The position numbers and the translations under genes are program-made. Shown piece by piece: positions 6,972-51,415 of a DNA stretch of 64,000 nt (the first letter of the stretch is position 1; every line of letters begins with the position of its first letter). Under the pieces are notes generated by a model. The model made no database searches, had not been told where the DNA came from, and saw nothing but the letters and a program-made list of their open reading frames with translations. The stretch is from a virus: positions 1-64,000 of IMG/VR virus record IMGVR_UViG_3300015371_000008. One strand, 5' to 3'.

Positions 6972-7002
6972 AGGGTGGTAGGCAGCGGCCGGTAGCGTCG
7001 CG
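6972..7002 (-). promoter_or_regulatory. class II (putative late) promoter
   Basis: CGCGAC-N19-CACCCT-N6-GTG. Confidence 0.75.
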
Positions 7003-7272
7003 GTCTAACCGCATCATCCTTTCGCTGACTCAACCGTGGAAGAAGACGATCACGCCGGTTGCTGCGGTGGCACCTGCTACATTGATGCGCGGAGCGTCGT
7101 TGCCCGAAATGCCGAACCCCGGGGAACTTCCCAGGCTTTGCCGGGGCGTACTGAAACATCTGATGGCAGCCTTATCAAGGGCAAAAGTAGTAAGACCCGC
7201 GATTGACTGCTAATTGGACTAATAGGGAAAACTCGTCGTCTGGGCGGGCAACGGCGCTCCGCCTTCTTTTCG

Positions 7273-7346
7273 AAGCCTGAGGGGGGATCGAACCCCTGAA
7301 CCGACGGCTTTGCAGGCCGCCTCCCGCGCCAGCGAGAACCCAGGCT
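7273..7346 (-). tRNA. tRNA-Cys(GCA)
   Basis: Cloverleaf, loop CTGCAAA, U73. Confidence 0.85.
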
Positions 7347-7569
7347 ATGTATTCAGACGTATGGCTGCCGCCCATACGATCAGGAGGACCAGGGCCGCCA
7401 ATTTGATGAACGTCCACACGCCGCGCTTGGCGTCCTGCTCCATTTTCGGAAGTGCGGCCAGAGTACCCTGCCATCTGCGCCACAGGTCCAACATCACCTG
7501 GAATCGTCTGCCGACGATGAATAGCATCATTCCGACGATGATGAGCAGCAGGACCCATTTGTGTGCCAA
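7345..7569 (-). CDS. small membrane protein
   Basis: Two hydrophobic helices, GGGAG SD. Confidence 0.6.
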   Translation of the reverse strand: MAHKWVLLLIIVGMMLFIVGRRFQVMLDLWRRWQGTLAALPKMEQDAKRGVWTFIKLAALVLLIVWAAAIRLNT

Positions 7570-7651
7570 GTCTCACTCCCGCAGGTCAGAGGACTGCAAA
7601 GCGCCTCCGCCAACGTACGCGCGGACGTCTCCGAATGTGGGGCGTTCAGTG

Positions 7652-7798
7652 TCATCGGGTCGCGTCGAATCGTACGGCGCCGCCCGGCTGCGACTGCTCC
7701 AGGTCCACCACGGCAGCCAGAAATCCGGCGGCGTCCAACTCTCCTCGCTGCAACCGCGCGACCAGATCGGACGCGTCCAGAATCACCACTTCGTTCAT
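7652..7798 (-). CDS. 48-aa hypothetical protein abutting tRNA-Tyr 3' end
   Basis: MNEVVILDASDLVARLQRGELDAAGFLAAVV..., GC3-rich; below ORF track cutoff. Confidence 0.5.
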   Translation of the reverse strand: MNEVVILDASDLVARLQRGELDAAGFLAAVVDLEQSQPGGAVRFDATR

Positions 7799-7799
7799 G

Positions 7800-7883
7800 T
7801 GCGCCAGGAGAGATTCGAACTCCCAATGCCCGGAAGGGCCACAGCTTTACAGGCTGCTGAGCGACCAACTGCTCAACTGACGC
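7800..7883 (-). tRNA. tRNA-Tyr(GTA)
   Basis: Loop CTGTAAA, long variable arm. Confidence 0.92.
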
Positions 7884-7884
7884 T

Positions 7885-7972
7885 TGGGGTGACCGACGGG
7901 ACTCGAACCCGCATGAACCTTTCGGCTCCGGGGGTTCACAGCCCCCTTCCTCAACCAATTCGGATCGGTCAC
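7885..7972 (-). tRNA. tRNA-His(GTG) with long variable arm
   Basis: Loop CTGTGAA, C73, encoded CCA. Confidence 0.88.
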
Positions 7973-7974
7973 AG

Positions 7975-8046
7975 TCGGCCTGGAGGGAATCGAACCCACA
8001 CCTGATCTTTAGGAGAGATCTGCTCGGTCCTTCGAGCTACAGGCCG
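7975..8046 (-). tRNA. tRNA-Arg(CCT)
   Basis: Loop CTCCTAA. Confidence 0.85.
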
Positions 8047-8055
8047 TGCCGCCGG

Positions 8056-8397
8056 TTACTTCGCCAGGCGGCTCGCGGTACGCCGCGCCGCTTCCGCCGA
8101 GTCGGGCGACGCCCTGAACACGTTGACCTCGTAGACGTCAACCTGCTCACCCAGCACCGGGAGCGTCTCCAACGTCCGCACCGTGGCGACGCCCGCATCA
8201 CGCGCTTCGACGACGAAGGTCGCTTGCACCGCCGTATTGGCGGGGTCTCCCACCCAGGTCAGGTGCATAACGTTCGGCACCACGTCCCTGCCGGGGGGCA
8301 GAGACGACAGCCTGGTGCGCGCCTCCTCCGCATCCGCCTTCGTCGCGAAGCCCCCCAGGATCAGTTTGACGTGCCAATTCTGCATGTCAGTCACCAC
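8056..8397 (-). CDS. hypothetical protein
   Basis: ORF track; overlaps upstream stop. Confidence 0.65.
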   Translation of the reverse strand: MVTDMQNWHVKLILGGFATKADAEEARTRLSSLPPGRDVVPNVMHLTWVGDPANTAVQATFVVEARDAGVATVRTLETLPVLGEQVDVYEVNVFRASPDSAEAARRTASRLAK

Positions 8398-8549
8398 CCA
8401 TTCCCTCGCAAGATCTTGGCGCGTTCCTCGCTCCGCCGCAGCGCCTTGAAGCCGTACTTGTCGTCTTCCGCCACGGCCCTCTGGCGGCGCCAGATCTTCG
8501 GAGCCTTCTTCGGCTTGTCGTCCTCGCTCGCGCTCTTGCCGAATCCCAT
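8391..8549 (-). CDS. small basic hypothetical protein
   Basis: MGFGKSAS after AGGAGG and GAGCGAC leader. Confidence 0.65.
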   Translation of the reverse strand: MGFGKSASEDDKPKKAPKIWRRQRAVAEDDKYGFKALRRSEERAKILRGNGW

Positions 8550-8580
8550 GCGTTCCTCCTGTGGTTGTGTCGCTCTGACG

Positions 8581-8651
8581 TACCCGGTGAGGGAGTCGAA
8601 CCCCCGCCTTCGCCTTGTAAGGGCGTTGCTCTCCCGTTGAGCTAACCGGGC
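8581..8651 (-). tRNA. tRNA-Val(TAC)
   Basis: Loop CTTACAA. Confidence 0.92.
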
Positions 8652-8668
8652 TTGACCATACACCAAAC

Positions 8669-8697
8669 AGCGTACAGTCATTTAGCGTTCAAGTCTA
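8669..8697 (-). promoter_or_regulatory. class I promoter with CGCTAAATG box
   Basis: TAGACT-17-TACGCT. Confidence 0.7.
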
Positions 8698-9129
8698 GGT
8701 TGTTTTGTGATCGTGACCGCAACCGCTGACCAGCGGCGGCACCTGAACGCGGACGACTTGTTCTCGATCGCCATAGCGGATCTGGATGAGTTCGTTCAGC
8801 GATGCCTTACCGGCCCGCTTCGACGCCTTGTCCTCGCCGAGCAGGACGGCGGCCAGTTCGTCAAAGGTCTGATTGACGCGGGCGACCGCGTGACGCATCG
8901 CCGCTTCGGTCGCATCCGCCAGCTTGGCGACTTCGGCCTTCAGCCGGTCGTTGACCGCCTGGTCGGTGAGCTGGGGGATGCGGTCGATGAGCGCTTGCAG
9001 CGCCTTGCGTTCGGCGATCATATCCTTCAGGACGCCCCTGGCCTCACTAGTCGCCTCCCGCAGGCTCTCCTCTGTCGTGATTGCCGATGAGATGTCGTCT
9101 GGCCGCTGCTGACGGCGTTTGGTTCCCAT
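8695..9129 (-). CDS. coiled-coil hypothetical protein
   Basis: Helical ORF; ATG directly after tRNA-Val(GAC). Confidence 0.65.
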   Translation of the reverse strand: MGTKRRQQRPDDISSAITTEESLREATSEARGVLKDMIAERKALQALIDRIPQLTDQAVNDRLKAEVAKLADATEAAMRHAVARVNQTFDELAAVLLGEDKASKRAGKASLNELIQIRYGDREQVVRVQVPPLVSGCGHDHKTT

Positions 9130-9130
9130 G

Positions 9131-9203
9131 TAGTCGCGGCAGGATTTGAACCTGCGACCTTCGCTGTGTCGAAGCGGTGCTCTACCAGCTGAGCTACACG
9201 ACC
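9131..9203 (-). tRNA. tRNA-Val(GAC)
   Basis: Loop TCGACAC (C33). Confidence 0.88.
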
Positions 9204-9208
9204 TTTTG

Positions 9209-9344
9209 TGGTCGAACCCGGATCCCGGCATGCAGGGTAGTCCCTTGCGTTCCCTGTCTGCCGTCGGCGGGCCCGGCCGGTCGGCCCAGGCTTTCAGGGG
9301 GCGATACAGCCGTGGGTATCGCTAGGTTGGTCCGGGTTCGACCA
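9209..9344 (-). ncRNA. putative stem-closed structured spacer RNA
   Basis: 14-bp terminal stem TGGTCGAACCCGGA/TCCGGGTTCGACCA with internal hairpins between two tRNAs. Confidence 0.5.
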
Positions 9345-9345
9345 G

Positions 9346-9418
9346 CACCGGTGGGAGGGTTCGAACCCCCGGCCTTCCGCTTTGGAGGCGGCTGCTCTAC
9401 CAACTGAGCTACACCGAT
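9346..9418 (-). tRNA. tRNA-Trp(CCA)
   Basis: Loop CTCCAAA. Confidence 0.92.
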
Positions 9419-9524
9419 CGGGCGCGAGTGAGGTATCGCGCAGCTTTTTGCAGGACTTCCGGATCATCGCTCCTGACGATGAAGGCCGACGCCTGAGACG
9501 GGATCCAGGCGTCGGCCCGCTGAG

Positions 9525-9598
9525 TGGCGGGGGCAGGATTTGAACCTGCGACCTCTGGGTTATGAGCCCAGCAAGCTACCGAACTGCTCCACCCCGCT
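9525..9598 (-). tRNA. initiator tRNA-fMet(CAT)
   Basis: 1:72 mismatch, GGG/CCC anticodon stem. Confidence 0.93.
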
Positions 9599-9608
9599 AC
9601 GTCCCATC

Positions 9609-9959
9609 CTACTTGGGACGCTCCACTACGTGGAGATCCTTTAGTGCGTCCTCGATCGCACGGTTCGTCGTCGCCGTCTCAATGACGGCGACACGCTGCT
9701 CATGCTCTACGAGGCTCAGGCGCCGATCGGCATAGGCGTCGGCCACCTGCTGCAACGCGTGGTCACGGTCGTCGCCGGTCGGCCTGGCGGCCAGCCAGCG
9801 TTCCATCTGCCGGGAGCGCCGCGCGTCCTGGATTACCTGCCTCTTCCGCTTCGCGTGGTCGATCTTCTCGGTCATCCACGGAATAGCCACAACGATCACA
9901 ATTACGGCTATGGCCAGCCACAGGATGGCGAATGCCGGTAGAGCTGCCTTCATCATCAC
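9609..9959 (-). CDS. membrane-anchored DUF1707/SHOCT-like protein
   Basis: TM helix plus DRDHALQQVADAYADRRLSLVEHEQRV. Confidence 0.7.
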   Translation of the reverse strand: MMMKAALPAFAILWLAIAVIVIVVAIPWMTEKIDHAKRKRQVIQDARRSRQMERWLAARPTGDDRDHALQQVADAYADRRLSLVEHEQRVAVIETATTNRAIEDALKDLHVVERPK

Positions 9960-9993
9960 TCATCTCCTTCGGGTGGGTCGCTCTCCACCAACG

Positions 9994-10067
9994 TGCCGCC
10001 GACGGGATTCGAACCCGCAAAACCCCAGATTGAAAGTCTGGTGACTCTACCCTTCGTCCACGGCGAC
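9994..10067 (-). tRNA. tRNA-Glu(TTC)
   Basis: Loop CTTTCAA. Confidence 0.9.
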
Positions 10068-10079
10068 CAGGGACTTACG

Positions 10080-10795: not shown

Positions 10796-10868
10796 TACCC
10801 CCGCCGGGATTCGAACCCGGATTTCGACGCTTAAAAGGCGCCTACTCTGCCAATTGAGCTACAGGGGC
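10796..10868 (-). tRNA. tRNA-Lys(TTT)
   Basis: Loop CTTTTAA. Confidence 0.93.
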
Positions 10869-10871
10869 ATG

Positions 10872-11015
10872 TCACGCAGGATTGGCGATCACCATCCCGC
10901 AGTCCTCACAGTGCGGCGGCCAGACCAGCCACCCCATCCACTCCTCCGAACGATCCAGTCCCTCCGGAACGATCCTGCCGCCGCACTGCTGACAGTCGGG
11001 ATAGAACCAGGTCAT
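10872..11015 (-). CDS. small zinc-ribbon protein
   Basis: CQQC...HCEDC, GGAGG SD. Confidence 0.55.
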   Translation of the reverse strand: MTWFYPDCQQCGGRIVPEGLDRSEEWMGWLVWPPHCEDCGMVIANPA

Positions 11016-11029
11016 AGACCCTCCGTACG

Positions 11030-21542: not shown

Positions 21543-21860
21543 TTACGGGACATTGCCGGGCAGAACATCAGAATCGATGATCAGGGTGACGCCGAACAGC
21601 TTCGCCCACGCCATCCCCGGTCGGGGAGAAACGGCCAGGTTGAACCGGGTCGTACGGGGCTGCGCCCCGGCCGGGGTCTCCATGAACATCTCCCATGCTT
21701 CACCCTGGGCACAATCCAGCAACAAAAAAGCTTCACCCGACGTGATCAGCATGGCGGCGCGCACCGTTGCGGTATCCAGCCCACCCGACTGCAACGCCAT
21801 GGCGAAGGCGTAGACCCGCTGGATCAGCTCACGGGCACCCGGCGGCAGCGACGCGGTCAT
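21543..21860 (-). CDS. hypothetical protein (leaderless)
   Basis: ATG 7 nt after class II -10. Confidence 0.6.
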   Translation of the reverse strand: MTASLPPGARELIQRVYAFAMALQSGGLDTATVRAAMLITSGEAFLLLDCAQGEAWEMFMETPAGAQPRTTRFNLAVSPRPGMAWAKLFGVTLIIDSDVLPGNVP

Positions 21861-21867
21861 GACGGCC

Positions 21868-21898
21868 AGCATGGGAGGAGCGAGGCGCTTACGTCTCG
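21868..21898 (-). promoter_or_regulatory. class II promoter variant
   Basis: CGAGAC-N19-CATGCT-N7-ATG. Confidence 0.6.
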
Positions 21899-22598: not shown

Positions 22599-22895
22599 TC
22601 ACCCCTTGCCGGACCGGTTCTTCGCCGCCAGGACGCGAGACAGACCCTGCACGGTGAGCCGGTACCGGCGGCGGGGGAGTATCTCCTCCCCATACTGGTC
22701 GATCTCTGTCATCTCCCAGTGGGAGTTGATCCAGTCGGAGCGTTCCAGCCTGGCCAGATCGGGATACAGGTTGCCCGACCACGACAGGTTCAGCGCGTGG
22801 TAGAGGTCGATCCCCGTCATCCCCCCATCGGGCCCGTTGAACAGGGCGACCAGGATCGCCACCTGTCGCTTGACCCGCCGCTTCCTCCCGAACAT
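22599..22895 (-). CDS. PadR-like winged-helix protein
   Basis: SGNLYPDLARLERSDWINSHWE...RRRYRLTVQG. Confidence 0.8.
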   Translation of the reverse strand: MFGRKRRVKRQVAILVALFNGPDGGMTGIDLYHALNLSWSGNLYPDLARLERSDWINSHWEMTEIDQYGEEILPRRRYRLTVQGLSRVLAAKNRSGKG

Positions 22896-23260
22896 CACGC
22901 GGACTCCTTCAGGGCCTTGTCGTACTCGATCAGGGCGGCGGCCAGGGCCGACTGGTGGATGTCGGTGTAGAACGCCTGCCAGGATTCGCCGAACTCGTGT
23001 TGGGCCCATGAGCGGACGATATGGAAGGCGGCCCAGGCGCGCGCCTCCGGGCCGTCCTGGTCGGTGTGGACCTGGCCGCGCCGTTCCTGCATGGCGGCCA
23101 GCGCCGGTCCGCCGAGGAGGCGGGCGCATTCGGTGCAGTTGAGTCCGGCGGGGTGGTTGACGCTGCGGCAGGGCCGCAGCCCCTTCTCATCTTCGGGGTG
23201 CGCCGGTGTGGGGTGGCCGCACATGGTGCAGTGGGTGAACTCCGTGTCCGTGTCGCTCAT
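22895..23260 (-). CDS. hypothetical zinc-binding protein
   Basis: CxxCGH...CxxC; GAGGAGG SD. Confidence 0.7.
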   Translation of the reverse strand: MSDTDTEFTHCTMCGHPTPAHPEDEKGLRPCRSVNHPAGLNCTECARLLGGPALAAMQERRGQVHTDQDGPEARAWAAFHIVRSWAQHEFGESWQAFYTDIHQSALAAALIEYDKALKESA

Positions 23261-27140: not shown

Positions 27141-27857
27141 TCATATCGGCACACCCCAGCCCTGAAACAGCGTCGCCGTGTAGGTGAGCCGGACCTGCCC
27201 CGCCCGTCCGGCAGCGCCCGCCAAGGTGCCCGAGTTGGTGCCGCCCGCCCCGCCACCACCACCGCCAGGGCCGGATGCTGGAGTTGTCGCGTTGTTGGAC
27301 CCCTGAGTGCCGCCGGTACCACCAGGCCCACCGCCGGTGACTGCCGTCGCACCCGCGCCTCCGGCGCCGCTGCTCGTTGACGCGTTACTCCCCGCGTTGC
27401 CAACGGCGGCGGTACCAGCGGAACCTCCTCCACCTCCACCGCCGCCCCAGGAGGAGTTGCCCGCACCGCCCGCACCGCCGTTGAAATGCGTGCCTGTCGC
27501 CGTGCCGGTGCCGCCTGCACCGCCCGCACCCGCCGCAGCGGAAGCGCCTCCGCTGCCGCCGTGTCCCGTCACCGTGACGGACGTGCCCGTGAAAGTCGAG
27601 CTCCCTCCGGAGCCGCCGGTCGCCTGGGCTACGCCGGTGCCGCCCGCACCGACCGTGTAGGAGTAGCCGGTGCCGGGCGAGACCGCCACGCCGGTCACCT
27701 TGGCGTACTCGCCGCCGCCGCCTCCTCCGCCGTTCTTGGACGTGGACGCGCCACCGCCCGCGCCGCCGCCGCCCCAGCATTCGACGTCAACGCTGGTGAC
27801 CCCGGATGGGCAGGTCCACGTAGATGTGCCCGCCGTGGTGAACGTGTCGGTCGCCAT
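27141..27857 (-). CDS. glycine-rich virion/fibre protein
   Basis: TWTCPSGVTSVDVECWGGGGAGG and Gly repeats. Confidence 0.85.
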   Translation of the reverse strand: MATDTFTTAGTSTWTCPSGVTSVDVECWGGGGAGGGASTSKNGGGGGGGEYAKVTGVAVSPGTGYSYTVGAGGTGVAQATGGSGGSSTFTGTSVTVTGHGGSGGASAAAGAGGAGGTGTATGTHFNGGAGGAGNSSWGGGGGGGGSAGTAAVGNAGSNASTSSGAGGAGATAVTGGGPGGTGGTQGSNNATTPASGPGGGGGGAGGTNSGTLAGAAGRAGQVRLTYTATLFQGWGVPI

Positions 27858-28345
27858 CAGCAGAGAATCTGCACTACTAGGTCCGCCCCGGCCACGGTGC
27901 TCCCAATTTGATCTATGTCCACGGTGAAGTAGGCCCCATCGGCGATCGTCGTCGTGTTCATGTTCGTGACCTTGCCGGAGGTGTTTCCGCTGATCGCGAT
28001 CGTCGGCCGGTTGCCCTGCGTAGAGAAGATCGTGGTGCCGTTGACGTTGATGTCCACGATGATCGCGGCGCCCGTGGGGGCCGTGCCGACACTCGCGCGT
28101 ACGCCCTTGATGTCGAGGGTGGCGGTGGTGTCGTTGTAGATCCGGAACGTCCCGGCGCCCGTGGTCAGAGTGCCAGCGCGGGAGAACGGGAACAGAATCC
28201 CCGCCTCGACAAGGTGTTCCGCACCTGCACTGTTACGCGTCCACAGCACCGCATTGGGCCTGGCGAATACGGCGCACCATCCGGACGGCGGATTGCCCGG
28301 ACTGGCTTGCTCCGGCAGCGCCACCGCGCTCGCGAACTTCGGCAT
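27857..28345 (-). CDS. virion structural protein
   Basis: GTAPTGAAIIVDINVNGTTIFST...VDIDQIGSTVAGADL. Confidence 0.75.
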   Translation of the reverse strand: MPKFASAVALPEQASPGNPPSGWCAVFARPNAVLWTRNSAGAEHLVEAGILFPFSRAGTLTTGAGTFRIYNDTTATLDIKGVRASVGTAPTGAAIIVDINVNGTTIFSTQGNRPTIAISGNTSGKVTNMNTTTIADGAYFTVDIDQIGSTVAGADLVVQILC

Positions 28346-28539
28346 CAGACGTCCTTGGTTTCGAGCCCCTCCGGGCGCCAGCCGACTCCGTGACAGTGAT
28401 CACACTGCACGAGGCGTTGTGCGACGGCCAGGGCGCGCAGCCGGTGCGGGAACGGACGTGGCTCGTCGGTGGAGGTGGAGTAGCACGGCTCCCCTGGCTC
28501 GGCCAGGCAGCAGGAGCAGGTCGCCTCCAGCGGATCCAT
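28345..28539 (-). CDS. small zinc-finger protein
   Basis: CSCCLAEPGEPC...HRLR. Confidence 0.55.
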   Translation of the reverse strand: MDPLEATCSCCLAEPGEPCYSTSTDEPRPFPHRLRALAVAQRLVQCDHCHGVGWRPEGLETKDV

Positions 28540-28541
28540 GT

Positions 28542-29744
28542 TCACGCCCTGGCCTGCACGACGACGCGGTAGACGGCGGAGGAGGCGGAGTTGGCTGAGG
28601 TCAGGGAGATGTTGTTGGTGTCCACCACGATCTCGTCCATGTAGACGCGGGCGCCGCCGGTGTTCTCGTACACGAACACCTGGACGTCCTTGGTCCCCAG
28701 GTTGTGGGTGATATTGAGGGCGCTGCCGCCGGTCAGCGCGCCGACGTCGGCGGCGTAGGCGGTGACGGCGACCAGGTTGGTACGGGCGGCCGACGCGCTG
28801 GTGGCGTTGGTGCCGCCCTTGCTGAGGGGTACCAGGCCCACGGTGATGTCGTTCGAGTTCACCGTCAGGCTGCCGTCGGCGGCCACGACGTCGAACGTCG
28901 AACCGGTCAGGGTCAGACCGGCCCCGGCGACGTAGGTGGTGCCGGAGGTCGTGTAGACGGTCCACGTCTGCGTCCACGAGCCTGGCGAGCCTGACGGGGT
29001 GGCCGTCTGGATGTACTGGCCGCCCGCGTAGGTGCCCTCGGCTACGGCGACGAGGGTGCCGTCCAGGATCTCCCCGGTGGCGTCGGCGTCGGGAGCGCGG
29101 GTGGCGGCGGAGCCGGACCCGTTGAAGACGTAGATGCCGTTCTGGGTGCCGGTCGTCTGCCCGGCGGCCAGGAATCGGTCGCCGCTGGTCAGGGTGACGC
29201 CGTCCACGGTCGTGCCGGGGCCGGACAGGGTGACGTTGGATTGGGTGGCCACCCTGACGGGGTCCTTGACGCCCACGATCCCGGCCCGCGCATCGTCAAC
29301 GTACTGTTTGTTGGCGGCGTCGGTGCCGGTGCTGGGCGCCAACAGGTTGGTGATCTTCTGGGAGTTGAGGGATACCGACGCCGTCGGCGCCGCCATCTGG
29401 TCCAGGCGGGACGTACGAACCTGCGTGTCGAAGTCGCTGATCGTGGACGCGGTCTGAGTGCCGGTGTGGTTGGCGCGGGCCAGCGGGTCGGTGGCCAGTT
29501 TGGACAAGGCGATGGCGGCGCCGGAGGCGACCTTGGCGTTGGTGATCGTGTCGTCGGGGATGTCCCCGCCATCCATGCGGACCCAGGATGTGCCGTTGTA
29601 GTACTTGTCCACCGGCGGCGTCAGAGACGTGTCGGTCCACATCTGGCCGGTGACCGGGCTGCTCGGCGCAGTGCCGGACGCTTCCGGCGTCAGCCCCTTG
29701 ACCGGAATCTTGGACGTGTCGATCGGCGCCAAAAACTTCGGCAT
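28542..29744 (-). CDS. head/tail fibre-like protein
   Basis: DAANKQYVD, VRVAT...LSG...VDGVTL...QNGIYV. Confidence 0.85.
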   Translation of the reverse strand: MPKFLAPIDTSKIPVKGLTPEASGTAPSSPVTGQMWTDTSLTPPVDKYYNGTSWVRMDGGDIPDDTITNAKVASGAAIALSKLATDPLARANHTGTQTASTISDFDTQVRTSRLDQMAAPTASVSLNSQKITNLLAPSTGTDAANKQYVDDARAGIVGVKDPVRVATQSNVTLSGPGTTVDGVTLTSGDRFLAAGQTTGTQNGIYVFNGSGSAATRAPDADATGEILDGTLVAVAEGTYAGGQYIQTATPSGSPGSWTQTWTVYTTSGTTYVAGAGLTLTGSTFDVVAADGSLTVNSNDITVGLVPLSKGGTNATSASAARTNLVAVTAYAADVGALTGGSALNITHNLGTKDVQVFVYENTGGARVYMDEIVVDTNNISLTSANSASSAVYRVVVQARA

Positions 29745-29752
29745 CCTGCCCC

Positions 29753-30145
29753 CTACGAGGTGAGGTCGAGTTGGCCAGCCATGGGGAAGGCCCACTCGAC
29801 GCGGACTTGTGTGGGGGTGGGATAGGAGACGTCGCCCTCAATGAGGACTCCGCCGGTATCGGTAGCGATCACGTTGGGGGTGATGGGGATCGTGTGGGTG
29901 ACCTGCCACACCGCCAGCGGGGAGGCGAAGACGTAGGTCTGCTGTATCGCTCCGCCGGGAGGTCCTGCCGGACCGGTAGGCCCGGCAGGACCCTGCGGCC
30001 CGGTCGTGCCGGGCGGCCCCTGCACGCCCGGCATGGTGAGTTCCAGGGCGACGTCAGGGCCGCCGTCAACGGTGACGGTCGTCTGAGAGTCGATCTCGAC
30101 CAGAATGGCGCCCGGCGCCTCGACGACCTCCAGCAGGATCGTCAC
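29753..30145 (-). CDS. collagen-like virion protein
   Basis: GxP repeats; fibre-operon context. Confidence 0.8.
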   Translation of the reverse strand: MTILLEVVEAPGAILVEIDSQTTVTVDGGPDVALELTMPGVQGPPGTTGPQGPAGPTGPAGPPGGAIQQTYVFASPLAVWQVTHTIPITPNVIATDTGGVLIEGDVSYPTPTQVRVEWAFPMAGQLDLTS

Positions 30146-30498
30146 CGGGTCACCTCGGCGGACACCTCAACCTCGCCCCGCAGCAGCCGCGTGGTATCGC
30201 CACCCGGCGACTCAATCTCCAGGTCATAGACGCCGTAACGCCACGTCCAGGCGGCGGTGACGTCGTCGGCGACGGCCAGCCGGATCTCCCCTTCGGCGGC
30301 GTCCACCGTGATGCCGGATCCGACGGTCAACGACAGCAGCGGAGTCGGCGACGTGATCGACTCACGGACCTGCATGCGTACGGCGTAGCCGGTCAGGTCG
30401 ATCGGCGTGGGCGGGTCGTCGGCCGGGTTTTTGAGGCGCAGCAGCATGGACCAGGACTCACCCTGGCCAATTTCGATCTTCCAATACGCGGCTGGCAC
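30142..30498 (-). CDS. virion protein, BppU-N-like fibre adaptor
   Basis: IDLTGYAVRMQVR...GVYDLEI...LLRGEVEV. Confidence 0.8.
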   Translation of the reverse strand: MPAAYWKIEIGQGESWSMLLRLKNPADDPPTPIDLTGYAVRMQVRESITSPTPLLSLTVGSGITVDAAEGEIRLAVADDVTAAWTWRYGVYDLEIESPGGDTTRLLRGEVEVSAEVTR

Positions 30499-30505: not shown

Positions 30506-30536
30506 ACCGTGACGGACCGGGACAGTTAAGGTCGCG
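30506..30536 (-). promoter_or_regulatory. class II (putative late) promoter
   Basis: CGCGAC-N19-CACGGT-N7-GTG. Confidence 0.8.
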
Positions 30537-30549: not shown

Positions 30550-30586
30550 AAAAAGCGGGCCCCGACGCCGTGTCGGTGGCCCGCTC
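30550..30586 (-). terminator. intrinsic terminator after ssb
   Basis: GCGGGCC...GGCCCGC hairpin followed by TTTTT. Confidence 0.8.
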
Positions 30587-30596
30587 CTGTTGGGGT

Positions 30597-32118: not shown

Positions 32119-32910
32119 TCAAGTGATAGGGGAAGTCCAAGCCGCCTCCCAGGTGATCGGCCCAACCACGCCGTCGGCCACCAGCCCCTTCTCCGCCTGG
32201 AAGGCGCGGGCAACGTCGGCGTCGGCGCGGGCCCACGCCGAGTCCACGACGATGGACCAGCCGCGCTGCCGCATCTGCCGCTGCCACGTAGCGACGTCGC
32301 TGCCGCGCATAGGCGGGTTCTTCACCGTGAAGTAGCGGCCCGGCCACACCGGCACCTGGACGGCGGTCACCGGCGGCTCCGTCGTGATGGCATTAAGCGC
32401 CTCATGGACCATGGCCAGGAACCAATCCCACGGGAAGCCCGGCCCCGGGTCGGTGTGGTCGGAGCGTTTGTAGACGGCCGACACGTCGGCGTGGCAGGTG
32501 ATGCCGCGATTGCCTGCCGCCAGCTCCGCCCGGGTCAGCCGCCGGACGGGCAGGCCGTACTTTGCGCACCAGGCGGCGGTCACCTTGGCCGCCTGACCCA
32601 AGGCCGCCTTGGAGTAGTCATCCAGCCATTCGTCGCGGGACTGCCGCATGTATCCGGCGATCTCCAGTTGGAGGCCGTCAGTGTTGGCGCCGGGCGCGGC
32701 GTACGCGGTGTCCTCGTCGGGGACGCAGCGCACCGCAGAATCGTTGTCTACGCAGATGTGGGCGGAGGCGACGACGCCGGAGTCCCGGAAGTAGCGGGCC
32801 ACGTTCTCGGCCGTCAGCGGCCCCTCAGGGGCTTCCGCATCGTGGATGACGACGAGCCGGACGGTGGCGAGGCGGCCCTTTCTGTACTGGCTGGACAGGA
32901 TGGTCTGCAT
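32119..32910 (-). CDS. endolysin: N-acetylmuramoyl-L-alanine amidase with peptidoglycan-binding domain
   Basis: VIHDAE, SAHICVD, HADVS...HTDPG, FQAEKGLVADGVVGPITW. Confidence 0.92.
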   Translation of the reverse strand: MQTILSSQYRKGRLATVRLVVIHDAEAPEGPLTAENVARYFRDSGVVASAHICVDNDSAVRCVPDEDTAYAAPGANTDGLQLEIAGYMRQSRDEWLDDYSKAALGQAAKVTAAWCAKYGLPVRRLTRAELAAGNRGITCHADVSAVYKRSDHTDPGPGFPWDWFLAMVHEALNAITTEPPVTAVQVPVWPGRYFTVKNPPMRGSDVATWQRQMRQRGWSIVVDSAWARADADVARAFQAEKGLVADGVVGPITWEAAWTSPIT

Positions 32911-32916: not shown

Positions 32917-32947
32917 ACGGTCGCGCCCGACAGGCATTAACGTCGCG
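32917..32947 (-). promoter_or_regulatory. class II (putative late) promoter
   Basis: CGCGAC-N19-GACCGT-N6-ATG. Confidence 0.75.
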
Positions 32948-33014
32948 GGCTGCGACACGCAGACGCCCCGCCGAAGCCTTGCGGCAAAGACTCCGGCGGG
33001 GCGGGAACGGGGGA

Positions 33015-39291: not shown

Positions 39292-39879
39292 CTACTCGTC
39301 GCCGTCAAACCCCTGCTCCACCACATCACCCTCCACGACACCGGAGGCGCCCCCGTCGATCGCTGCCAGCTCAGCGTGCAACCGCTGCGCCAACTCCCCG
39401 ATAGACGCTGAATGCTCCACCTGGATCGCGCCACCGCCCGGCCCGGACACCTCCGTAGGCTGCCGCCCCCAGCCGCGATCCCAGAACCGGCGAGCCAGGA
39501 TCTCCAGACCGACCCGGCCATCCGCCGGGGCCGTCTGCTCCTCCTCCTCCACCGTCCCGTCAGGCTTCCGCCGTGTGACGCGCTTAACGACGTAACCGCC
39601 CATTGCTGCTTTCATCACCGATCCGGCGACAACCCGCACTTCAAGCTCATCACGCGCCCGATAAAGATCCTGAAGGAACTGAACCTTCCAACTTGGGGCG
39701 TTGGGTTCTTCGGCTTCGTTGATCCAGTTGTAGAGGGTGCGTTCGCTGATGCCTGCGGCTCCGGCGGCGGCGTTGAAGGTGGCGCCTGCTCGGACGGCGT
39801 TGACGATGCGGTCGTGGATTTCGGGGGTGAGTTTGGAGCGTCGGCCGCCTGTGCGGCGTCGTGTGGGTGCGGTGTCCAT
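39292..39879 (-). CDS. terminase small subunit-like HTH protein
   Basis: GRRSKLTPE...AAGAAGISERTLYNW...EVSGPGGGAIQVEH. Confidence 0.75.
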   Translation of the reverse strand: MDTAPTRRRTGGRRSKLTPEIHDRIVNAVRAGATFNAAAGAAGISERTLYNWINEAEEPNAPSWKVQFLQDLYRARDELEVRVVAGSVMKAAMGGYVVKRVTRRKPDGTVEEEEQTAPADGRVGLEILARRFWDRGWGRQPTEVSGPGGGAIQVEHSASIGELAQRLHAELAAIDGGASGVVEGDVVEQGFDGDE

Positions 39880-39889: not shown

Positions 39890-39920
39890 ACGGTGACCGG
39901 GGGCTGGTGTTTGTGTCGCG
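39890..39920 (-). promoter_or_regulatory. class II (putative late) promoter
   Basis: CGCGAC-N19-CACCGT-N10-ATG. Confidence 0.75.
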
Positions 39921-39987
39921 TGGTGGCGTACAGGAACGCCCCCGGGTCCTGTGTGGGGCGCCGGGGGCGTTGCTGGTGTGGGGGGGG

Positions 39988-46126: not shown

Positions 46127-46156
46127 AAGATACAGTCATTTAGCGTCTCGGGTCAA
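46127..46156 (-). promoter_or_regulatory. class I promoter
   Basis: TTGACC-18-TATCTT with CGCTAAATG. Confidence 0.8.
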
Positions 46157-46797
46157 GGGGTTTTGACGAGGTCGAAGAACTCGCTGCGCATCGCCACACT
46201 GTCCCGGAACGAGCCGCGCAGGTGCGACGTCACCATGGCCGCGCCGACCGCGCGGGCTCCCCGCAGCGTCATGCAGGAGTGCGCTGACCGGATCACGCAC
46301 GCCGCCCCCTCGGTGTCGAGGTTGCGGACGATCGCGTCCACGATCTGATCGCCGAGGCGTTCCTGCATCTGCGGCCGGGCCGCGTACTCCTGCACGATCC
46401 GGGCCAGCTTCGACAGGCCGACCACGCGGGCGCCCGGCGCTGGAACGTAGCCGACGGCGGCCGTGCCGGTGAAGGCGAGGAGGTGGTGTTCGCAGATTGA
46501 GGTGAACGCGATACCCGGCACGATGATCATGCCGGGGTTGTTCGACGGCGGCGGGAATGTCCGGGCGAAGTGCCGGTCCGGGTCGGCCCGAGTTCCGGCC
46601 GTCAGCTCGACCAGGGCGCGCACGAACCGGCCCGGCGTCTCCTCGGTGCCGTCGTCGTCGCACGGCATCCCCAGCGCCCGCAGCATCGCGCGGGCATGCA
46701 TGACGGCGACGTTGAAGTCCCCGGCCGCTTCCGGGTCCGTCTCGATGTAGCCGACCGGGTCCGGCAACCCGTACGTGTAGATCTCTTCTACGGCCAT
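46153..46797 (-). CDS. folE: GTP cyclohydrolase I
   Basis: ETPGRF, SICEHHLL, GLSKLARIV, PQMQERL, HSCMTLRG. Confidence 0.96.
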   Translation of the reverse strand: MAVEEIYTYGLPDPVGYIETDPEAAGDFNVAVMHARAMLRALGMPCDDDGTEETPGRFVRALVELTAGTRADPDRHFARTFPPPSNNPGMIIVPGIAFTSICEHHLLAFTGTAAVGYVPAPGARVVGLSKLARIVQEYAARPQMQERLGDQIVDAIVRNLDTEGAACVIRSAHSCMTLRGARAVGAAMVTSHLRGSFRDSVAMRSEFFDLVKTP

Positions 46798-47534
46798 CAG
46801 CGCCCCCGCTCGTCTCCCCAGAGCAGCACATGCATGCGATGGGTGTAGTTGAACCGGTAGAACAGCGCCTGCTCTACGGTGTTCCTGGTGGTGACGGCCA
46901 GCACTTCGGCGCTCCGCCCCTCCGGCATGATCCAGACGCGTTCGGCCGGGATGTCCAGGTCAGTGACGTAGGCGGCGACCGCATCGACGTCAGAGGCGAT
47001 ACGGCATACCCACTTGAAGACGGCTTTGCCCGTGTCGCGGAACGCGGTCAGCACCTCGGGCCGGATCCGCTTCTCCTCGCTCATCCCGGCGTGCGCCAAC
47101 TTGGGGCTCACGTTGAACTGGCTTACGCAGGCAACCGTGTAGGCGTCGGGGGTGATGGTGCCGTTCGTCTCCACCTCCACCCGTTTGCCGAGCCGCTTCA
47201 GCCCGTCCAGCAGGCTGCGCCATCCCTCCTGCTGCTGGTGCAGTAGCGGTTCACCGCCGGTGATGACGACCATGTCGGCGCCGTGCTGCTCCACTTCGGC
47301 CAGGATCCCGGCGACCGGCGCCCGCGTCAGCTCCTCGCGCAGGTTGTAGCGGTCGGCGTTCCAGGTGTATTGGGTATCGCACCAGCCGCAGGACAGGTTG
47401 CAGCCGCCAGTGCGGACGAACGACGCCGTACGGCCCGCCGACGCTCCTTCGCCTTGCCAGGTTGGGCCGAAGCATTCGGCGATCACCAGGGATTCGTCTG
47501 TGCTGAACAGCTCAACCGGGGGGGTGTCGGTCAT
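46797..47534 (-). CDS. queE: 7-carboxy-7-deazaguanine synthase
   Basis: QGEG, CNLSCGWCDT, ITGGEPLL, VETNGT, NVSPKL. Confidence 0.95.
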   Translation of the reverse strand: MTDTPPVELFSTDESLVIAECFGPTWQGEGASAGRTASFVRTGGCNLSCGWCDTQYTWNADRYNLREELTRAPVAGILAEVEQHGADMVVITGGEPLLHQQQEGWRSLLDGLKRLGKRVEVETNGTITPDAYTVACVSQFNVSPKLAHAGMSEEKRIRPEVLTAFRDTGKAVFKWVCRIASDVDAVAAYVTDLDIPAERVWIMPEGRSAEVLAVTTRNTVEQALFYRFNYTHRMHVLLWGDERGR

Positions 47535-48037
47535 GCGCTCTCCCGTAGGGGTTGGGTGGCTCGGGACCACACCTCGCGCACGGTGACGCGGGGGGCGGGC
47601 GCCTCCCACTCTGCCGCGTTGACGTGGGTCTCCGTCACCACAACGCGCGCAATGTGGGTGCCGTCCGGCGGTTCCGGCGGCAGCCACATGACGGCCCGGT
47701 CGGCGATCATCTCCGCGACCGCCTCCACCGTCGGCCAGTCGGCGCCGGGCCAGTCGTAGCCGAACCGGAACACCTTGCAGCCGTGCTCCAGCAGGATCTT
47801 GGCCAGCGGATCCTGATTGCCGAGCATGGCGCCGTGGTCAAGGTTGGTGTCGATCCAGGCGCGCATGTGCGCCTTGAAGCCGCCGAACTCCACGATCGTG
47901 CCGTAGCCGTCCAGTTCGGGGGCGGACACCGTTACCGTGGCCCACCAGGAGTGGCCGTGCAGGTTGGTGCACTTGTCGCCGAGTAGCGGCAGCCGGTGGG
48001 CCGCTTCGAAATTATGACGAACGGAAATGGAGCGCAT
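47531..48037 (-). CDS. queD: 6-carboxytetrahydropterin synthase
   Basis: FEAAHRL, CTNLHGHSW, LDHG, PTVEAVA, VVVTET. Confidence 0.93.
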   Translation of the reverse strand: MRSISVRHNFEAAHRLPLLGDKCTNLHGHSWWATVTVSAPELDGYGTIVEFGGFKAHMRAWIDTNLDHGAMLGNQDPLAKILLEHGCKVFRFGYDWPGADWPTVEAVAEMIADRAVMWLPPEPPDGTHIARVVVTETHVNAAEWEAPAPRVTVREVWSRATQPLRESA

Positions 48038-48043
48038 CCCCGG

Positions 48044-48074
48044 ATCGTGGCGGGGATGCGCTCCTTGTGTCGCG
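48044..48074 (-). promoter_or_regulatory. class II (putative late) promoter
   Basis: CGCGAC-N19-CACGAT-N6-ATG. Confidence 0.8.
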
Positions 48075-48242: not shown

Positions 48243-48659
48243 TTAGGCGGCGCACTTGTCGGCGTCGCGGCAGAAGTGCTGGGCGGGGCCGCAGATGCGG
48301 GCGGCTTCGCGGATCGTCTTCGGGCTCCAGTAGCAGTCCCGCTCCACGTAGATCGGGACGGGCAGGCCGTACCTGGCCCGGCCCACCGTCTGCTCCAGGT
48401 CGCGCAGGTCGAAGTAGCACAGCTCGGCACCCTGCGGGTTACCGGCCAGTCGGACGTAGCCGAATACTTCGCCGGTGGTGTCGAAGTCGTCGGCGAACTC
48501 GGTCACCCACCAGTCGCCTGCGGCGCCGAAGTAGTGGACGTGGACGGTGGCGTCCAGCCCCTTGCCTTCCTGGGCGTAGAGCTTCGGGTATTTGGCGAGT
48601 TCGCGGGCGGTGGGGTAGAAGCGGTGGCCGCGAAGGCGCCGGTTCTTCTCGATGAACAT
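48243..48659 (-). CDS. DUF2958-like protein
   Basis: HYFGAAGDWWVTE...FGYV...ELCYFDL...VERDCYW. Confidence 0.75.
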   Translation of the reverse strand: MFIEKNRRLRGHRFYPTARELAKYPKLYAQEGKGLDATVHVHYFGAAGDWWVTEFADDFDTTGEVFGYVRLAGNPQGAELCYFDLRDLEQTVGRARYGLPVPIYVERDCYWSPKTIREAARICGPAQHFCRDADKCAA

Positions 48660-48717
48660 CTGTTCTCCTGTGCGTCGCTCAAGGTGGGGGCCCCGGATCC
48701 CGGGGCCCATCGGCCGG

Positions 48718-48852
48718 TCAGAACATGCATCCCAGGCGGGCGACGACGATCTCCCAGGCCCACTCGCGGAAGGCGGGGACGAAGATCAGGGCGGCGATGT
48801 GGGCGACGAACAGCGTGACGCCGATAACGAAGGGGAGGTCGCTGCGCTTCAT
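48718..48852 (-). CDS. small membrane protein
   Basis: MKRSDLPFVIGV after AGGAG; class I leader. Confidence 0.55.
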   Translation of the reverse strand: MKRSDLPFVIGVTLFVAHIAALIFVPAFREWAWEIVVARLGCMF

Positions 48853-48894
48853 GATCTTCTCCTGGGGGTGTCGGTCGCTCTTTCCGATACCCCA

Positions 48895-48924
48895 AAGATA
48901 CAGTCATTTAGCGCCTCAGGTCAA
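48895..48924 (-). promoter_or_regulatory. class I promoter
   Basis: TTGACC-18-TATCTT with CGCTAAATG. Confidence 0.8.
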
Positions 48925-49787
48925 GGGCCGTAGCCCATCGCGTTCATCACCGCGTACACCTCGCCCAGCCGGGCCGGACTCGTCGTCACGACGTTCCAGT
49001 GCAGCCGGTTCCAGAACTCGCGTGCCGGTTCGGTGAAGTCGATGCCGTCCGGATACGTCGCCTCCACCTGCCGCCGGTAGCCCCGGGCGGCGAACGCCAC
49101 ATACCGGTACAGGCAGGCCCAGCAGCGTCCGCAGTGGCCCGGCATGTCGGCGAAGCAGGAGCGGGCGGCCAAGGCGTCCTCCAGCCAGCCCCGGGCGGCC
49201 CACCATGACACGCAGTCGGCCTTGGACATGCCGATCAGTGGGGAGGACAGGCGGAAGTCGAAGCCGTTCGCGGTGGCCATGTGCTGCATGGTGGACGCCC
49301 ACCGGAACGACTTGTCGCCGCCGACGATCGGTGTCTCCAGGTAGTTGCCGCCCAGGTGGCCGAACCAGACTTCGCCCCACCAGCCGTGAGCGTGCGCCCA
49401 TTCCAGCAGCCGCCACACGATGATCGAATTGCGGCCGATCTGGAAGTCTCCGACGGCGGTCCAGTCGTCGCCCACCTCCAGCATGTGCAGGCGGCCCTCA
49501 GTCAGCCGTAGCGCGGCTTCCCGGTCGCGGCGGGCGTACGGCACGCCGGTGGCCGCCATGACCGCCTCTACGGGCAATCCAGCGGCGCGGGCCATCCGGT
49601 AGCAGGTGGAGGAGTCCAGGCCGCCGGACACCGGGATGATGATCCGGAAACGCGGGTCGTCACGGTCGGCGTGCGGCAGCATCTGCCGCCGGAACGCGGT
49701 GTCGTCGCGACCCAGCCGCCACACCGCGCCCGGGTCGCCGCCGTCCAGCGCCGTCATCTCTTCGACTGCGTCGCCGGGCAGGTTCAC
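48921..49787 (-). CDS. queC: 7-cyano-7-deazaguanine synthase-like
   Basis: SGGLDS PP-loop, RN, SPL...SKAD, SCF...CGRCWAC..R. Confidence 0.88.
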   Translation of the reverse strand: MNLPGDAVEEMTALDGGDPGAVWRLGRDDTAFRRQMLPHADRDDPRFRIIIPVSGGLDSSTCYRMARAAGLPVEAVMAATGVPYARRDREAALRLTEGRLHMLEVGDDWTAVGDFQIGRNSIIVWRLLEWAHAHGWWGEVWFGHLGGNYLETPIVGGDKSFRWASTMQHMATANGFDFRLSSPLIGMSKADCVSWWAARGWLEDALAARSCFADMPGHCGRCWACLYRYVAFAARGYRRQVEATYPDGIDFTEPAREFWNRLHWNVVTTSPARLGEVYAVMNAMGYGP

Positions 49788-50731
49788 GCTGCCGCCTCCT
49801 GTCGTGTGCGCTGCACGACCAGGTCCACGATCAGGTCGAAGTCGCCCTCCGATCCAACCGCGAGGTAGATCTTGGGGCCGTTGAAGTGGATTCCGGGCGG
49901 TGTCGGTACGTAACGGTGGACGGCCAGGTGGTCGGCGTAGTTCATCCACGACAACAGTGCGGAGGAGGAGGTCCAGTCGCGTTCGGCCCGGCCCAGCTCC
50001 TTGCCGCGCATGCCGACGCGGGCGAAGCCAGGGTTGGCCAGAGCGACGGGATCGCCGCCATAGGCGCGCACCAGACTGGCGGAGGGGCGTCTAACTCCCC
50101 TTTTGATGTCGTCGGGGTGGCGCACGCACACCCATCGACCTCGCCCGCTATCGAAAAGGGTGATGGAGCCGTTGCGACTGCCCTGGGACCAGAAGGATGA
50201 GTCCACGCTGTAGAAGGGCAGCAGATCGGGGTAGGGCGGCCGGGTCATGCCGAGTCCGTGCAGGACGGCGCCGTGCGCTCGTGCGATCTTGTGGGCGCGG
50301 ATGAGCCACTGCATCATCGCCTTGCCCCGGGCGTTGACGGCGACGCCGCCGCCGAGGGCGACGAACGGATGCGTCGCGCACCACCGTTCCAGTTCCGACC
50401 ATGGCGAGCCGACGTGGAAGATCGGGATGATGTAGGTGGCGTCGCCCACCATCTGCTCCAGTTCCAGGGTGTTGCGGCCGGACGCGGCCGGATCCCCGAT
50501 GACGTCCAGTGTCATGGCGCAGTTGACGTACGGGCCGTATACCTGCAACCAGGTTGCATACCCCTTCAGCGAGATCGTCTTGCCTGTGGTGTAGGCGGTG
50601 AACGCCCCCGAGTCGGCCATGAAATCCACCTCCACGCCCCGTTCCCGGGCCCGGCGGACCAGCTTGCCCAGGTCCGTCTTGGCGAAGTAGGCGAACGAGC
50701 CGAGGATGGTGACGCGGCGTTCAGGCTGCAC
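49784..50731 (-). CDS. dpdA: DpdA-like 7-deazaguanine DNA transglycosylase (TGT fold)
   Basis: ADSGAFTA, LDVIGD, IPIFH, LHGLG, SVDSSFW; beside que genes. Confidence 0.75.
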   Translation of the reverse strand: MQPERRVTILGSFAYFAKTDLGKLVRRARERGVEVDFMADSGAFTAYTTGKTISLKGYATWLQVYGPYVNCAMTLDVIGDPAASGRNTLELEQMVGDATYIIPIFHVGSPWSELERWCATHPFVALGGGVAVNARGKAMMQWLIRAHKIARAHGAVLHGLGMTRPPYPDLLPFYSVDSSFWSQGSRNGSITLFDSGRGRWVCVRHPDDIKRGVRRPSASLVRAYGGDPVALANPGFARVGMRGKELGRAERDWTSSSALLSWMNYADHLAVHRYVPTPPGIHFNGPKIYLAVGSEGDFDLIVDLVVQRTRQEAAA

Positions 50732-51377
50732 TGTCGTGCGCCCACTCGATCAGCCGAATGAACCGGGCGGAGTCGTCCAGTTCCCCGTACGGCTCGGTCA
50801 AGTCCATGAAGAAGTTGCGGATGTGCGGCGGCACCTTGAACCGCAGCAGCGGCCACAGGTCGGAGTCGTCGGGGTCGCCGTATTCCTTCTCCAGGTCGTC
50901 CAGGGTGGGCGGCTCACCCAGGGATGCGATCATGTCGTCCAGGTCGGTTTGGGAGTATCCGGCGAGTTCGAGCAGGTCGGGGTTGTCGTCGGCGATCTCG
51001 TCCAGGACTTCGACCAGGAGACGGTCGTCCCAGCCGCCCAGTTCCGACAGCCGGTTGTCGGCCACCAGGTACGCCTCGGCTTCGGCGTCGGAGCGGGATG
51101 CCCAGCCGCGCACGATCGGGACCAGCCAGTCGCCGTCGGCTTCGGTGACGCCTTCGGGCGGGGTGGCGCCGTCGGCGCGCATGGAGTCCAGGGCGGCCAG
51201 GCGGCCGTGCCCGGCGACGAGGCGGCCGGTGCGTTCGTCGAGGAGTCCGGCCATGGTGACGCCGAATTTTTCGATCGACGCGCGGATGGCGCTGGCTTGG
51301 TGCGCTTTCGGATTGCGGGTCGCGCGGGTGATGCCGGACAGGGGCAGGTGGTCGATGCGGCGGGAGGTGGTCGTCAC
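50721..51377 (-). CDS. ParB-N-like domain protein
   Basis: RNPKAH, SIEKFG, LVAGHGRLAAL, YLVADNRL. Confidence 0.85.
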   Translation of the reverse strand: MTTTSRRIDHLPLSGITRATRNPKAHQASAIRASIEKFGVTMAGLLDERTGRLVAGHGRLAALDSMRADGATPPEGVTEADGDWLVPIVRGWASRSDAEAEAYLVADNRLSELGGWDDRLLVEVLDEIADDNPDLLELAGYSQTDLDDMIASLGEPPTLDDLEKEYGDPDDSDLWPLLRFKVPPHIRNFFMDLTEPYGELDDSARFIRLIEWAHDSAA

Positions 51378-51384
51378 GTCCGGC

Positions 51385-51415
51385 AGCGTGCCCGACGCCG
51401 GAGGTTAAGGTCGCG
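51385..51415 (-). promoter_or_regulatory. class II (putative late) promoter
   Basis: CGCGAC-N19-CACGCT-N7-GTG. Confidence 0.8.

Follow-up and report, generated by a model that had tools for sequence, protein, structure and literature searches.

A probable second promoter class, defined by sequence, ahead of late-type genes in an uncultured soil phage

How are fibre, endolysin, packaging and DNA-modification genes switched on separately, if they stand on the same strand between units that have another kind of promoter? This question is raised by the IMG/VR virus record IMGVR_UViG_3300015371_000008, a linear contig of 89,220 bp (G000), the first 64 kb of which (64,000 nt, hereafter the window) were analysed in this study. 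A preliminary description of the window had proposed a second promoter class with the motif CGCGAC-N19-CACNNT, driving leaderless genes from seven sites. Based on the sequence comparisons described here, class 2 appears to be a genuine promoter class that is specific to the lineage, goes with late-type genes and most likely needs a phage factor. The seven sites are very probably promoters of this second class, distinct from the first one of the same phage, the CTAAATG/GAGCGAC class.

The class-2 motif and its start codons

The short pattern CGCGAC-N19-CACNNT occurs six times in the window, always on the minus strand, compared to 0.55 expected matches, and none of 100 shuffled sequences reached six. 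No match was detected in the remaining 25 kb of the contig. The seven sites described before, all with a spacing of 19 nt, were found again at their positions (Table 1), five as exact matches and two (21868 and 32917) as variants. All of them are intergenic and lie on the minus strand, i.e. the gene strand. The earlier list of exact matches was right in its five entries and omitted a sixth, 7634-7664, which is probably due to chance.

While the enrichment of the short motif stands, its upstream element is not a hexamer as had been proposed. The alignment of the sites reveals a 12-mer, CG(C/A)GAC-(C/G)T(T/A)A(A/G)C, at about -37 to -26; examples are CGCGACCTTAAC (found twice), CGCGACGTTAAT, CGCGACACAAAC and CGAGACGTAAGC. 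It is followed by a 13-nt spacer without conserved sequence and a hexamer of the form nA(C/T)nnT. The distance between box and hexamer is exactly 13 nt in 12 of 12 sites, seven from the window and five from the relatives described below.

Class-1 promoters are built differently. They consist of TTGAC, a CGCTAAATG box within the spacer and a TACnnT -10 element (TACGTT, TACATT and others) at a distance of 16, 17 or 18 nt, usually followed by a GAGCGAC leader and a Shine-Dalgarno sequence (SD). Nearly all of them have a T at -12. The GAGCGAC leader is absent from all seven class-2 sites, in agreement with the preliminary description.

The previously described start codons were found as well: an ATG (four sites) or a GTG (three sites) follows the hexamer after 6 to 10 nt (6, 7, 7, 6, 10, 6 and 7 nt in the order of the coordinates, the 10 nt belonging to the gene resembling a small terminase subunit, TerS), and none of the seven has an SD. 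The seven class-2 genes make up most of the stand-alone genes without an SD. A gene caller based on codon usage and blind to the motif chose the same start at five of the seven sites; at the other two its start lies 9 and 12 nt further upstream, within the hexamer. The start-codon corrections proposed earlier follow if the promoter model holds and agree with an independent coding-potential call in five cases and differ from it in two. At the predicted +1, all seven window sites have ATG or GTG and never TTG or CTG, and an SD is missing; the 5' ends are predictions. The sites should therefore be positioned for leaderless mRNAs, with transcription predicted to begin on the start codon or immediately ahead of it. 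The motif derives its significance from the pattern as a whole, from the location of all seven sites between genes, from the motif-blind start calls and from the recovery in relatives.

Two further candidates were not counted as class-2 sites. The match at 7634 fails the extended box and has no start codon downstream, and at 58550-58581 (minus strand) CGCGAC-AGTAAC stands 18 nt, not 19 nt, before CACCAT. The latter is directly followed by a strong GC hairpin and by a gene with an SD (57739-58506). This could be a degenerate or leadered class-2 site, or only a terminator.

Class-2 sites before head genes of related phages

The contig (66% G+C, 37 tRNA genes, nearly all genes on the minus strand) is about 62% complete according to CheckV, and within this part no capsid, portal or tail-tube/head genes were detected. 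DNA resembling it was found in rhizosphere and soil metagenome runs. Since homologues of one lineage-specific contig protein are labelled Actinocorallia and Thermomonospora, the host is probably an actinobacterium.

No near relative of the contig is present in the INPHARED collection of annotated phages. Scanning JGI metagenomes with the class-1 box-plus-leader pattern yielded short relatives and the locus L117, which covers 13.3 kb of a 20.7-kb contig and contains three exact matches to the class-1 pattern. The capsid protein of L117 in turn led to G001 (IMGVR_UViG_3300036857_000618), an IMG/VR record of 27.5 kb (about 23% complete) with 65% capsid identity; a capsid alignment search found only G001 again. 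The class-1 pattern detected nothing related in IMG/VR and GTDB genomes, and neither the TerS-like protein nor a 587-aa protein, each used as a single query, had relatives in IMG/VR. The closest protein relatives of the 587-aa protein are P0001 (91% identity) and P0002 (56%); two IMG/VR loci with distant homologues of it (L106, L107) lack both promoter classes. A tblastx comparison of G001 with G000 gave noise-like matches only, and no gene of L117 matched G000 at the protein level. Therefore, the kinship of these phages rests on their shared regulatory motifs.

The pattern derived from the window alone detected two sites in L117, both with 19-nt spacing and on the gene strand, one before the prohead protease gene and one before the capsid gene. 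Three sites in G001 precede the large terminase (TerL) and portal genes, a group of head genes and the gene for the major capsid protein (MCP). The pattern that matched the TerL site had been fixed before that site came to light. Looking for the motif upstream of capsid and packaging genes had been put forward as a check of the proposal, and two relatives now provide such sites, the contig itself having no head genes. Three of the five relatives' sites contain a canonical TAYnnT hexamer.

Trained on the seven window sites and nothing else, a position weight matrix scored 19.9 and 18.7 at the two L117 sites, compared to 9.2 for the next best position and 17.3 for the best of 20 shuffles. In G001, the scores were 21.2, 17.3 and 15.1. 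On two unrelated high-GC phage loci, the scores stayed within the shuffle range. A degenerate 12-mer pattern was found five times on the gene strand of G000 and three times on that of G001, with none on the opposite strands, none when read backwards, and none in phage records of 225 kb and 94 kb with similar G+C content.

The aligned regions upstream of the capsid genes of L117 and G001 share 9 of 12 box positions, 3 of 13 spacer positions and 5 of 6 hexamer positions, with a strongly conserved leader directly after the hexamer; such a pattern looks like the footprint expected of a promoter. Variation between strains is weak support of the same kind. In related strains from three soil runs, site 32917 shows four well-supported changes among the differences listed, all of them in the spacer or at box position 12, where T to C produces the consensus GTTAAC; CGCGAC and the hexamer are unaltered among these differences.

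The capsid leader itself (about 115 nt, L117:10975-11095, minus strand, and L151:1455-1574, plus strand) is far better conserved than the promoter spacer or the DNA upstream. It contains a CCCGG-TGCTGA-CCGGG hairpin and may be a structured regulatory leader.

Possible readings of the box

All seven window sites and all five relatives' sites have an A at -11 and a T at -7 in their hexamers. These are the bases flipped out by sigma-70-family proteins. The class-2 hexamers share ACnnT with those of class 1. Of a TTGACA-like -35 element, only the GAC is left in CGCGAC; it stands in the register of the GAC in an 18-nt-spaced TTGAC and is preceded by an invariant CGC, the GC of which takes the place of the TT preferred by sigma-A. 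The T at -12 is absent from all seven window sites, which have C or G instead, and the TAAC half of the box is a conserved element additional to those of class 1.

The preliminary description had proposed a phage sigma factor or activator as the reader of the motif. Domains of sigma regions 2 and 4 (PF04542, PF08281, PF04545) had no match above the cut-off in the 89-kb contig or in G001, only weak helix-turn-helix (HTH) cross-matches below it, and Pfam scans of about 130 contig proteins showed no domain of a sigma, WhiB, MotA-type or T7-type polymerase protein. A WhiB gene was not found in the contig. The MotA domain MotCF (PF09158) is absent from G000 and G001, both incomplete records; AsiA was not searched for. 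A T7-type polymerase (PF00940) had no match in the contig, the control giving none either, and there was no WYL family member in the Pfam lists of 99 contig proteins or in scans of single proteins. The contig encodes as DNA-binding proteins an Xre protein, a weakly PadR-like protein (22599-22898), a GntR/UTRA regulator (contig 82355-83110), a small zinc-finger protein and the TerS-like HTH protein, none of which could be linked to the box. Class 2, which is bipartite with an unconserved 13-nt spacer, does not have the contiguous conserved block of about 20 bp that marks a promoter for a T7-like single-subunit polymerase.

We consider it reasonably probable that class-2 sites are hybrid promoters, with the polymerase of the host and its primary sigma factor on the -10 element and a phage factor on the box. 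According to this reading, the host RNA polymerase would recognize the -10 hexamer, and a phage-encoded DNA-binding factor would occupy the box in place of a -35 element and bridge to sigma region 4; only then would the promoter fire. The outcome would be a delayed (middle or late) expression of the fibre, endolysin, TerS-like and deazaguanine-modification genes and of two other units, and in the relatives the same signal would serve terminase/portal, prohead protease and major capsid genes. Three points favour host sigma: A-11 and T-7 are retained in the hexamer, which has ACnnT in common with class 1; the GAC stands in the sigma register; and no sigma gene was found in the contig or G001. 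A host primary sigma factor with an activator is at least as likely as a sigma factor of the phage.

Such an alternative sigma factor of the phage, whose gene would lie in the missing third of the genome and which would read the 12-bp box together with the hexamer like SPO1 gp28/gp34 or an extracytoplasmic function (ECF)-type factor, is rather unlikely but a serious rival, mainly on account of the rigid spacing. The invariant spacing compared to 16-18 nt in the sigma-A-type class 1, the C or G at -12 in all window sites, the long and specific upstream element and the incompleteness of the contig would all suit it. On the other hand, neither the contig nor G001 has a Sigma70_r2, r4 or r4_2 domain above the cut-off, the hexamer retains the features shared with class 1 and is canonical in three of the five relatives' sites, and a consistent ECF-type AAC/CGT register is lacking. 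An unassisted host promoter of modest strength (nnGACn-N18-nAnnnT), constitutive during infection and with CGCGAC due to common descent or GC bias, would fit the sigma-A register of GAC, A-11 and T-7. Furthermore, actinobacterial promoters often lack a good -35 element (PMC8635444), and the same phage has a canonical leaderless promoter, TTGACA-N17-TACGCT, at 4524. Nevertheless, we regard this explanation as unlikely: positions not preferred by sigma-A (CGC before GAC, TAAC in the spacer) are conserved in three phages despite diverged flanks and spacers, the spacing is rigid, and T-12, present in nearly every class-1 promoter, is avoided at all seven window sites.

It is very improbable that the sites are no promoters at all and represent chance matches, other binding sites (for packaging, partition or recombination) or a signal at RNA level. 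The bare dyad is not significant genome-wide, the exact match at 7634 has no gene behind it and 48044 coincides with a terminator-like hairpin; these facts could be taken for it, but the distances to a -10-like hexamer and to the start codons are fixed, all sites are intergenic on the gene strand, and the motif was recovered before unrelated genes in other phages. An RNA hairpin as a common feature of class 2 was rejected, as only 48044 of the seven sites folds better than shuffled sequences.

Several points weigh against hybrid promoters for late-type genes. No protein could be linked to the box as the proposed phage factor, and a sigma gene may lie in the missing parts of the contig and of G001. 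The strictly fixed spacing in 12 of 12 sites, compared to 16-18 nt in class 1, would also be expected of an alternative sigma factor. The comparison comprises three phages with about 130 kb in total, and the 12-mer consensus was refined with the relatives' sites included. The bare dyad CGCGAC-N19-CAC does not stand out across the genome (5 matches compared to 2.1 expected), and a de novo dyad count over the genome did not rediscover the short motif. Among the sequencing runs with DNA of the contig there is no RNA run, so that start sites and timing are predictions. Finally, the DNA-modification and dCTP deaminase genes among the class-2 units are not classic late genes.

The hybrid arrangement resembles known systems. 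In T4 middle promoters, the MotA box lies 12 +/- 1 bp from the -10 element, i.e. from -35 to -26 when 13 bp away (PMC2988021). The class-2 sites show this type of geometry, with a phage box in place of the -35 element exactly 13 nt from a host-type -10. In both cases a box of about 10-12 bp ends near -26, and both would form a second temporal class beside strong host-type early promoters. The box sequences are unrelated (CGMGACSTWARC compared to wwwTGCTTtA in T4), T4 needs an excellent -10 element whereas T-12 is missing here, and class 2 differs further in its high-GC actinobacterial host, in the lack of a detectable MotA DNA-binding domain and in its predicted leaderless mRNAs. An actinobacterial precedent for a hybrid promoter is the "sigma adaptation" by PafBC in mycobacteria, where a factor-specific element replaces the -35 element beside a canonical -10 and the factor is located between DNA and SigA domain 4 (PMC8635444). 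PafBC promoters have the structure tGTCgg-N10-tAnnnT instead of N13 after a 12-mer, and PafBC is a heterodimer of host proteins with WYL domains that acts in the DNA damage response; no WYL-domain counterpart was seen among the scanned contig proteins. Thus, class 2 may work like MotA or PafBC promoters, being a member of neither family by sequence or proteins.

A candidate for another type of factor is encoded by G001. In the unit that directly precedes the motif-driven terminase, the first gene (1759-2505, L150:1759-2505, plus strand) codes for a 248-aa protein, of which the first 60 residues form an RNA polymerase alpha C-terminal domain (alpha-CTD; PF03118, 2.7e-23). The predicted fold agrees with solved alpha-CTD structures to 0.6-1.0 Angstrom, and the domain shares 67% of its residues with that of Streptomyces coelicolor. 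It is followed by a helical linker and, at the C-terminus, by a helix-turn-helix; the C-terminal part has no fold match in the PDB. Late activators are often encoded at such a position. Among 5.8 billion proteins there is one full-length homologue (P0025), there is none in G000 or the other loci compared, and nothing ties the protein to the box. That the box is read by a new type of phage activator, derived from a captured alpha-CTD, contacting sigma region 4 or the polymerase and switching on the leaderless late genes, with the counterpart of the window phage encoded in the missing third of its genome, is a quite improbable, tentative idea.

Genes served, predicted leaderless expression and implications

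The class-2 units (Table 1) are interleaved with class-1 units, which carry SSB, a DnaB-type helicase and many small genes. The gene functions agree with those described previously, i.e. sites head the fibre, endolysin and TerS-like genes and both deazaguanine units. Strong terminator-like hairpins are located 13-16 nt upstream of three boxes, so that the layout is stop codon, terminator, box, -10 element and start codon.

Table 1. Class-2 sites, the units behind them and associated hairpins (window coordinates; spacing within sites in nt)
Feature	Coordinates	Strand	Details
Class-2 site	6972-7002	-	CGCGAC GCTACC N13 CACCCT; GTG 6 nt downstream; matrix score 19.9
Variant class-2 site	21868-21898	-	CGAGAC GTAAGC N13 CATGCT; ATG (21860) 7 nt downstream
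Class-2 site	30506-30536	-	CGCGAC CTTAAC N13 CACGGT; GTG (30498) 7 nt downstream; matrix score 26.2
Variant class-2 site	32917-32947	-	CGCGAC GTTAAT N13 GACCGT; ATG (32910) 6 nt downstream
Class-2 site	39890-39920	-	CGCGAC ACAAAC N13 CACCGT; ATG (39879) 10 nt downstream
Class-2 site	48044-48074	-	CGCGAC ACAAGG N13 CACGAT; ATG (48037) 6 nt downstream
Class-2 site	51385-51415	-	CGCGAC CTTAAC N13 CACGCT; GTG (51377) 7 nt downstream; TAA stop of upstream gene inside box
Exact short-pattern match, probably chance	7634-7664	-	second half of box misfits; no start codon behind; overlaps end of small open reading frame
Unit of site 6972	5300-6965	-	two unknown genes (6438-6965, 5965-6441), dCTP deaminase (5300-5947)
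Unit of site 21868	21543-21860	-	105-aa gene of unknown function; start as the promoter implies
Fibre/virion unit of site 30506	27857-30498	-	fibre-assembly-like (30142-30498), collagen-like fibre (29753-30145), 400-aa virion protein (28542-29744)
Fibre/virion unit of site 30506, further genes	within 27857-30498	-	66-aa zinc-finger protein, 162-aa protein
Endolysin of site 32917	32119-32910	-	Amidase_2 and PG_binding_1
HTH protein of site 39890	39292-39879	-	resembles TerS
Unit of site 48044	46153-48037	-	QueD, QueE (radical SAM), FolE (GTP cyclohydrolase I)
Unit of site 51385	48921-51377	-	ParB-like (50721-51377), DpdA/TGT-like (49784-50731), QueC-like (48921-49787)
Terminator-like hairpin with T5	30550-30587	-	13 nt upstream of 30506 box, after SSB gene
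17-bp terminator-like hairpin	32964-33003	-	16 nt upstream of 32917 box
Terminator-like hairpin	39935-39971	-	14 nt upstream of 39890 box
Perfect 14-bp hairpin	48029-48064	-	z = -5.7; loop contains the -10 hexamer of site 48044, 3' arm contains the queD ATG
L117 site		gene strand	CGCGACCTAAAC-N13-TACGTT; before 570-aa Peptidase_S78 prohead protease
L117 site		gene strand	CGCGACCTTAGC-N13-TACGGT; before 403-aa Phage_capsid protein
G001 site		gene strand	CGAGACGTAAGC-N13-TATGGT; before MCP gene; same 12-mer as window variant 21868
G001 site		gene strand	GGAGACCTAAGC-N13-CACTCT; before head-gene group including S78 protease open reading frame
G001 site		gene strand	CGCGACCTTAGC-N13-GACGCT; before TerL, portal downstream; behind terminator hairpin, 8 nt before SD-less ATG

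The preliminary description regarded leaderlessness as a property of the class. The layout in the window fits this, but among the five strong sites of the relatives, four are followed by an SD-containing leader; leaderlessness thus seems to be the way this phage uses the promoter and not to be intrinsic to class 2. In mycobacteria, an RTG at the 5' end of an mRNA is necessary and sufficient for translation (PMC4633059). The class-2 genes of the window resemble leaderless actinobacterial mRNAs in the ATG or GTG at the predicted +1, the missing SD and the -10 hexamer 6-7 nt upstream, and differ in that the arrangement belongs to a single phage promoter class and goes with late-type genes. When transcribed by read-through from early units upstream, these SD-less reading frames would be poorly translated, having neither an SD nor a 5'-terminal start. 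In this way a class-2 promoter might also gate translation.

The arrangement at site 48044 fits this idea, because the ATG of queD would be hidden only when the 5' arm of the hairpin is transcribed. Read-through RNA would bury the ATG in the hairpin, and an mRNA starting at the ATG would lack the 5' arm. The hairpin may thus both end the upstream unit and hide the SD-less queD start on read-through RNA.

Leaderless starts are used with host-type promoters by this phage, too, since the gene of a 72-aa Xre-type HTH_3 protein (4306-4524, minus strand) has the textbook TTGACA-N17-TACGCT promoter (4524-4565) 7 nt before its ATG. It adjoins a divergent plus-strand gene (4717-5310).

Some further elements were observed beside class 2. 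Boxes similar to those of class 1, with CTAAGTG instead of CTAAATG, occur in the window (51747-51777, minus strand) and in G001 (10860-10900), there followed by a GAGCGA hairpin leader, which suggests that class 1 extends to G001 in a variant form. On the plus strand of the window, antisense to the main gene direction, CGCTAAAT(G/A) boxes are present at 1774, 21920 and 52481, only some with a plausible -10 element; they may be antisense promoters. Outside the window, about 10 copies of GGACAT, partly with a 12-nt period, are clustered at contig positions 87536-87800, and about 11 copies of the inverse ATGTCC follow 500 nt further on (88256-88524). These inverted arrays resemble iterons, lie inside or beside two plus-strand genes and possibly represent a replication origin.

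In actinobacteriophages, virion genes are transcribed from a start ahead of the structural operon, apart from the SigA-like early promoters, and few of the late promoters have been characterised (PMC9262239), so that there is no described late-promoter consensus to compare with. Class 2 shares this separation of virion transcription from SigA-like early promoters and differs in that its motif stems from uncultured phages only. It would provide a defined consensus of box, fixed spacer and -10 element across phages for this barely characterised group of promoters, and could serve as a search key for relatives and for the phage factor. It may also account for the alternation of late-type genes and early units along a single strand: every late-type gene would have a terminator and a promoter of its own, and its SD-less start should be used for translation on the leaderless transcript only. 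If the factor replaces the -35 contact, it would correspond, on the phage side, to the sigma adaptation of the PafBC type in Actinobacteria.

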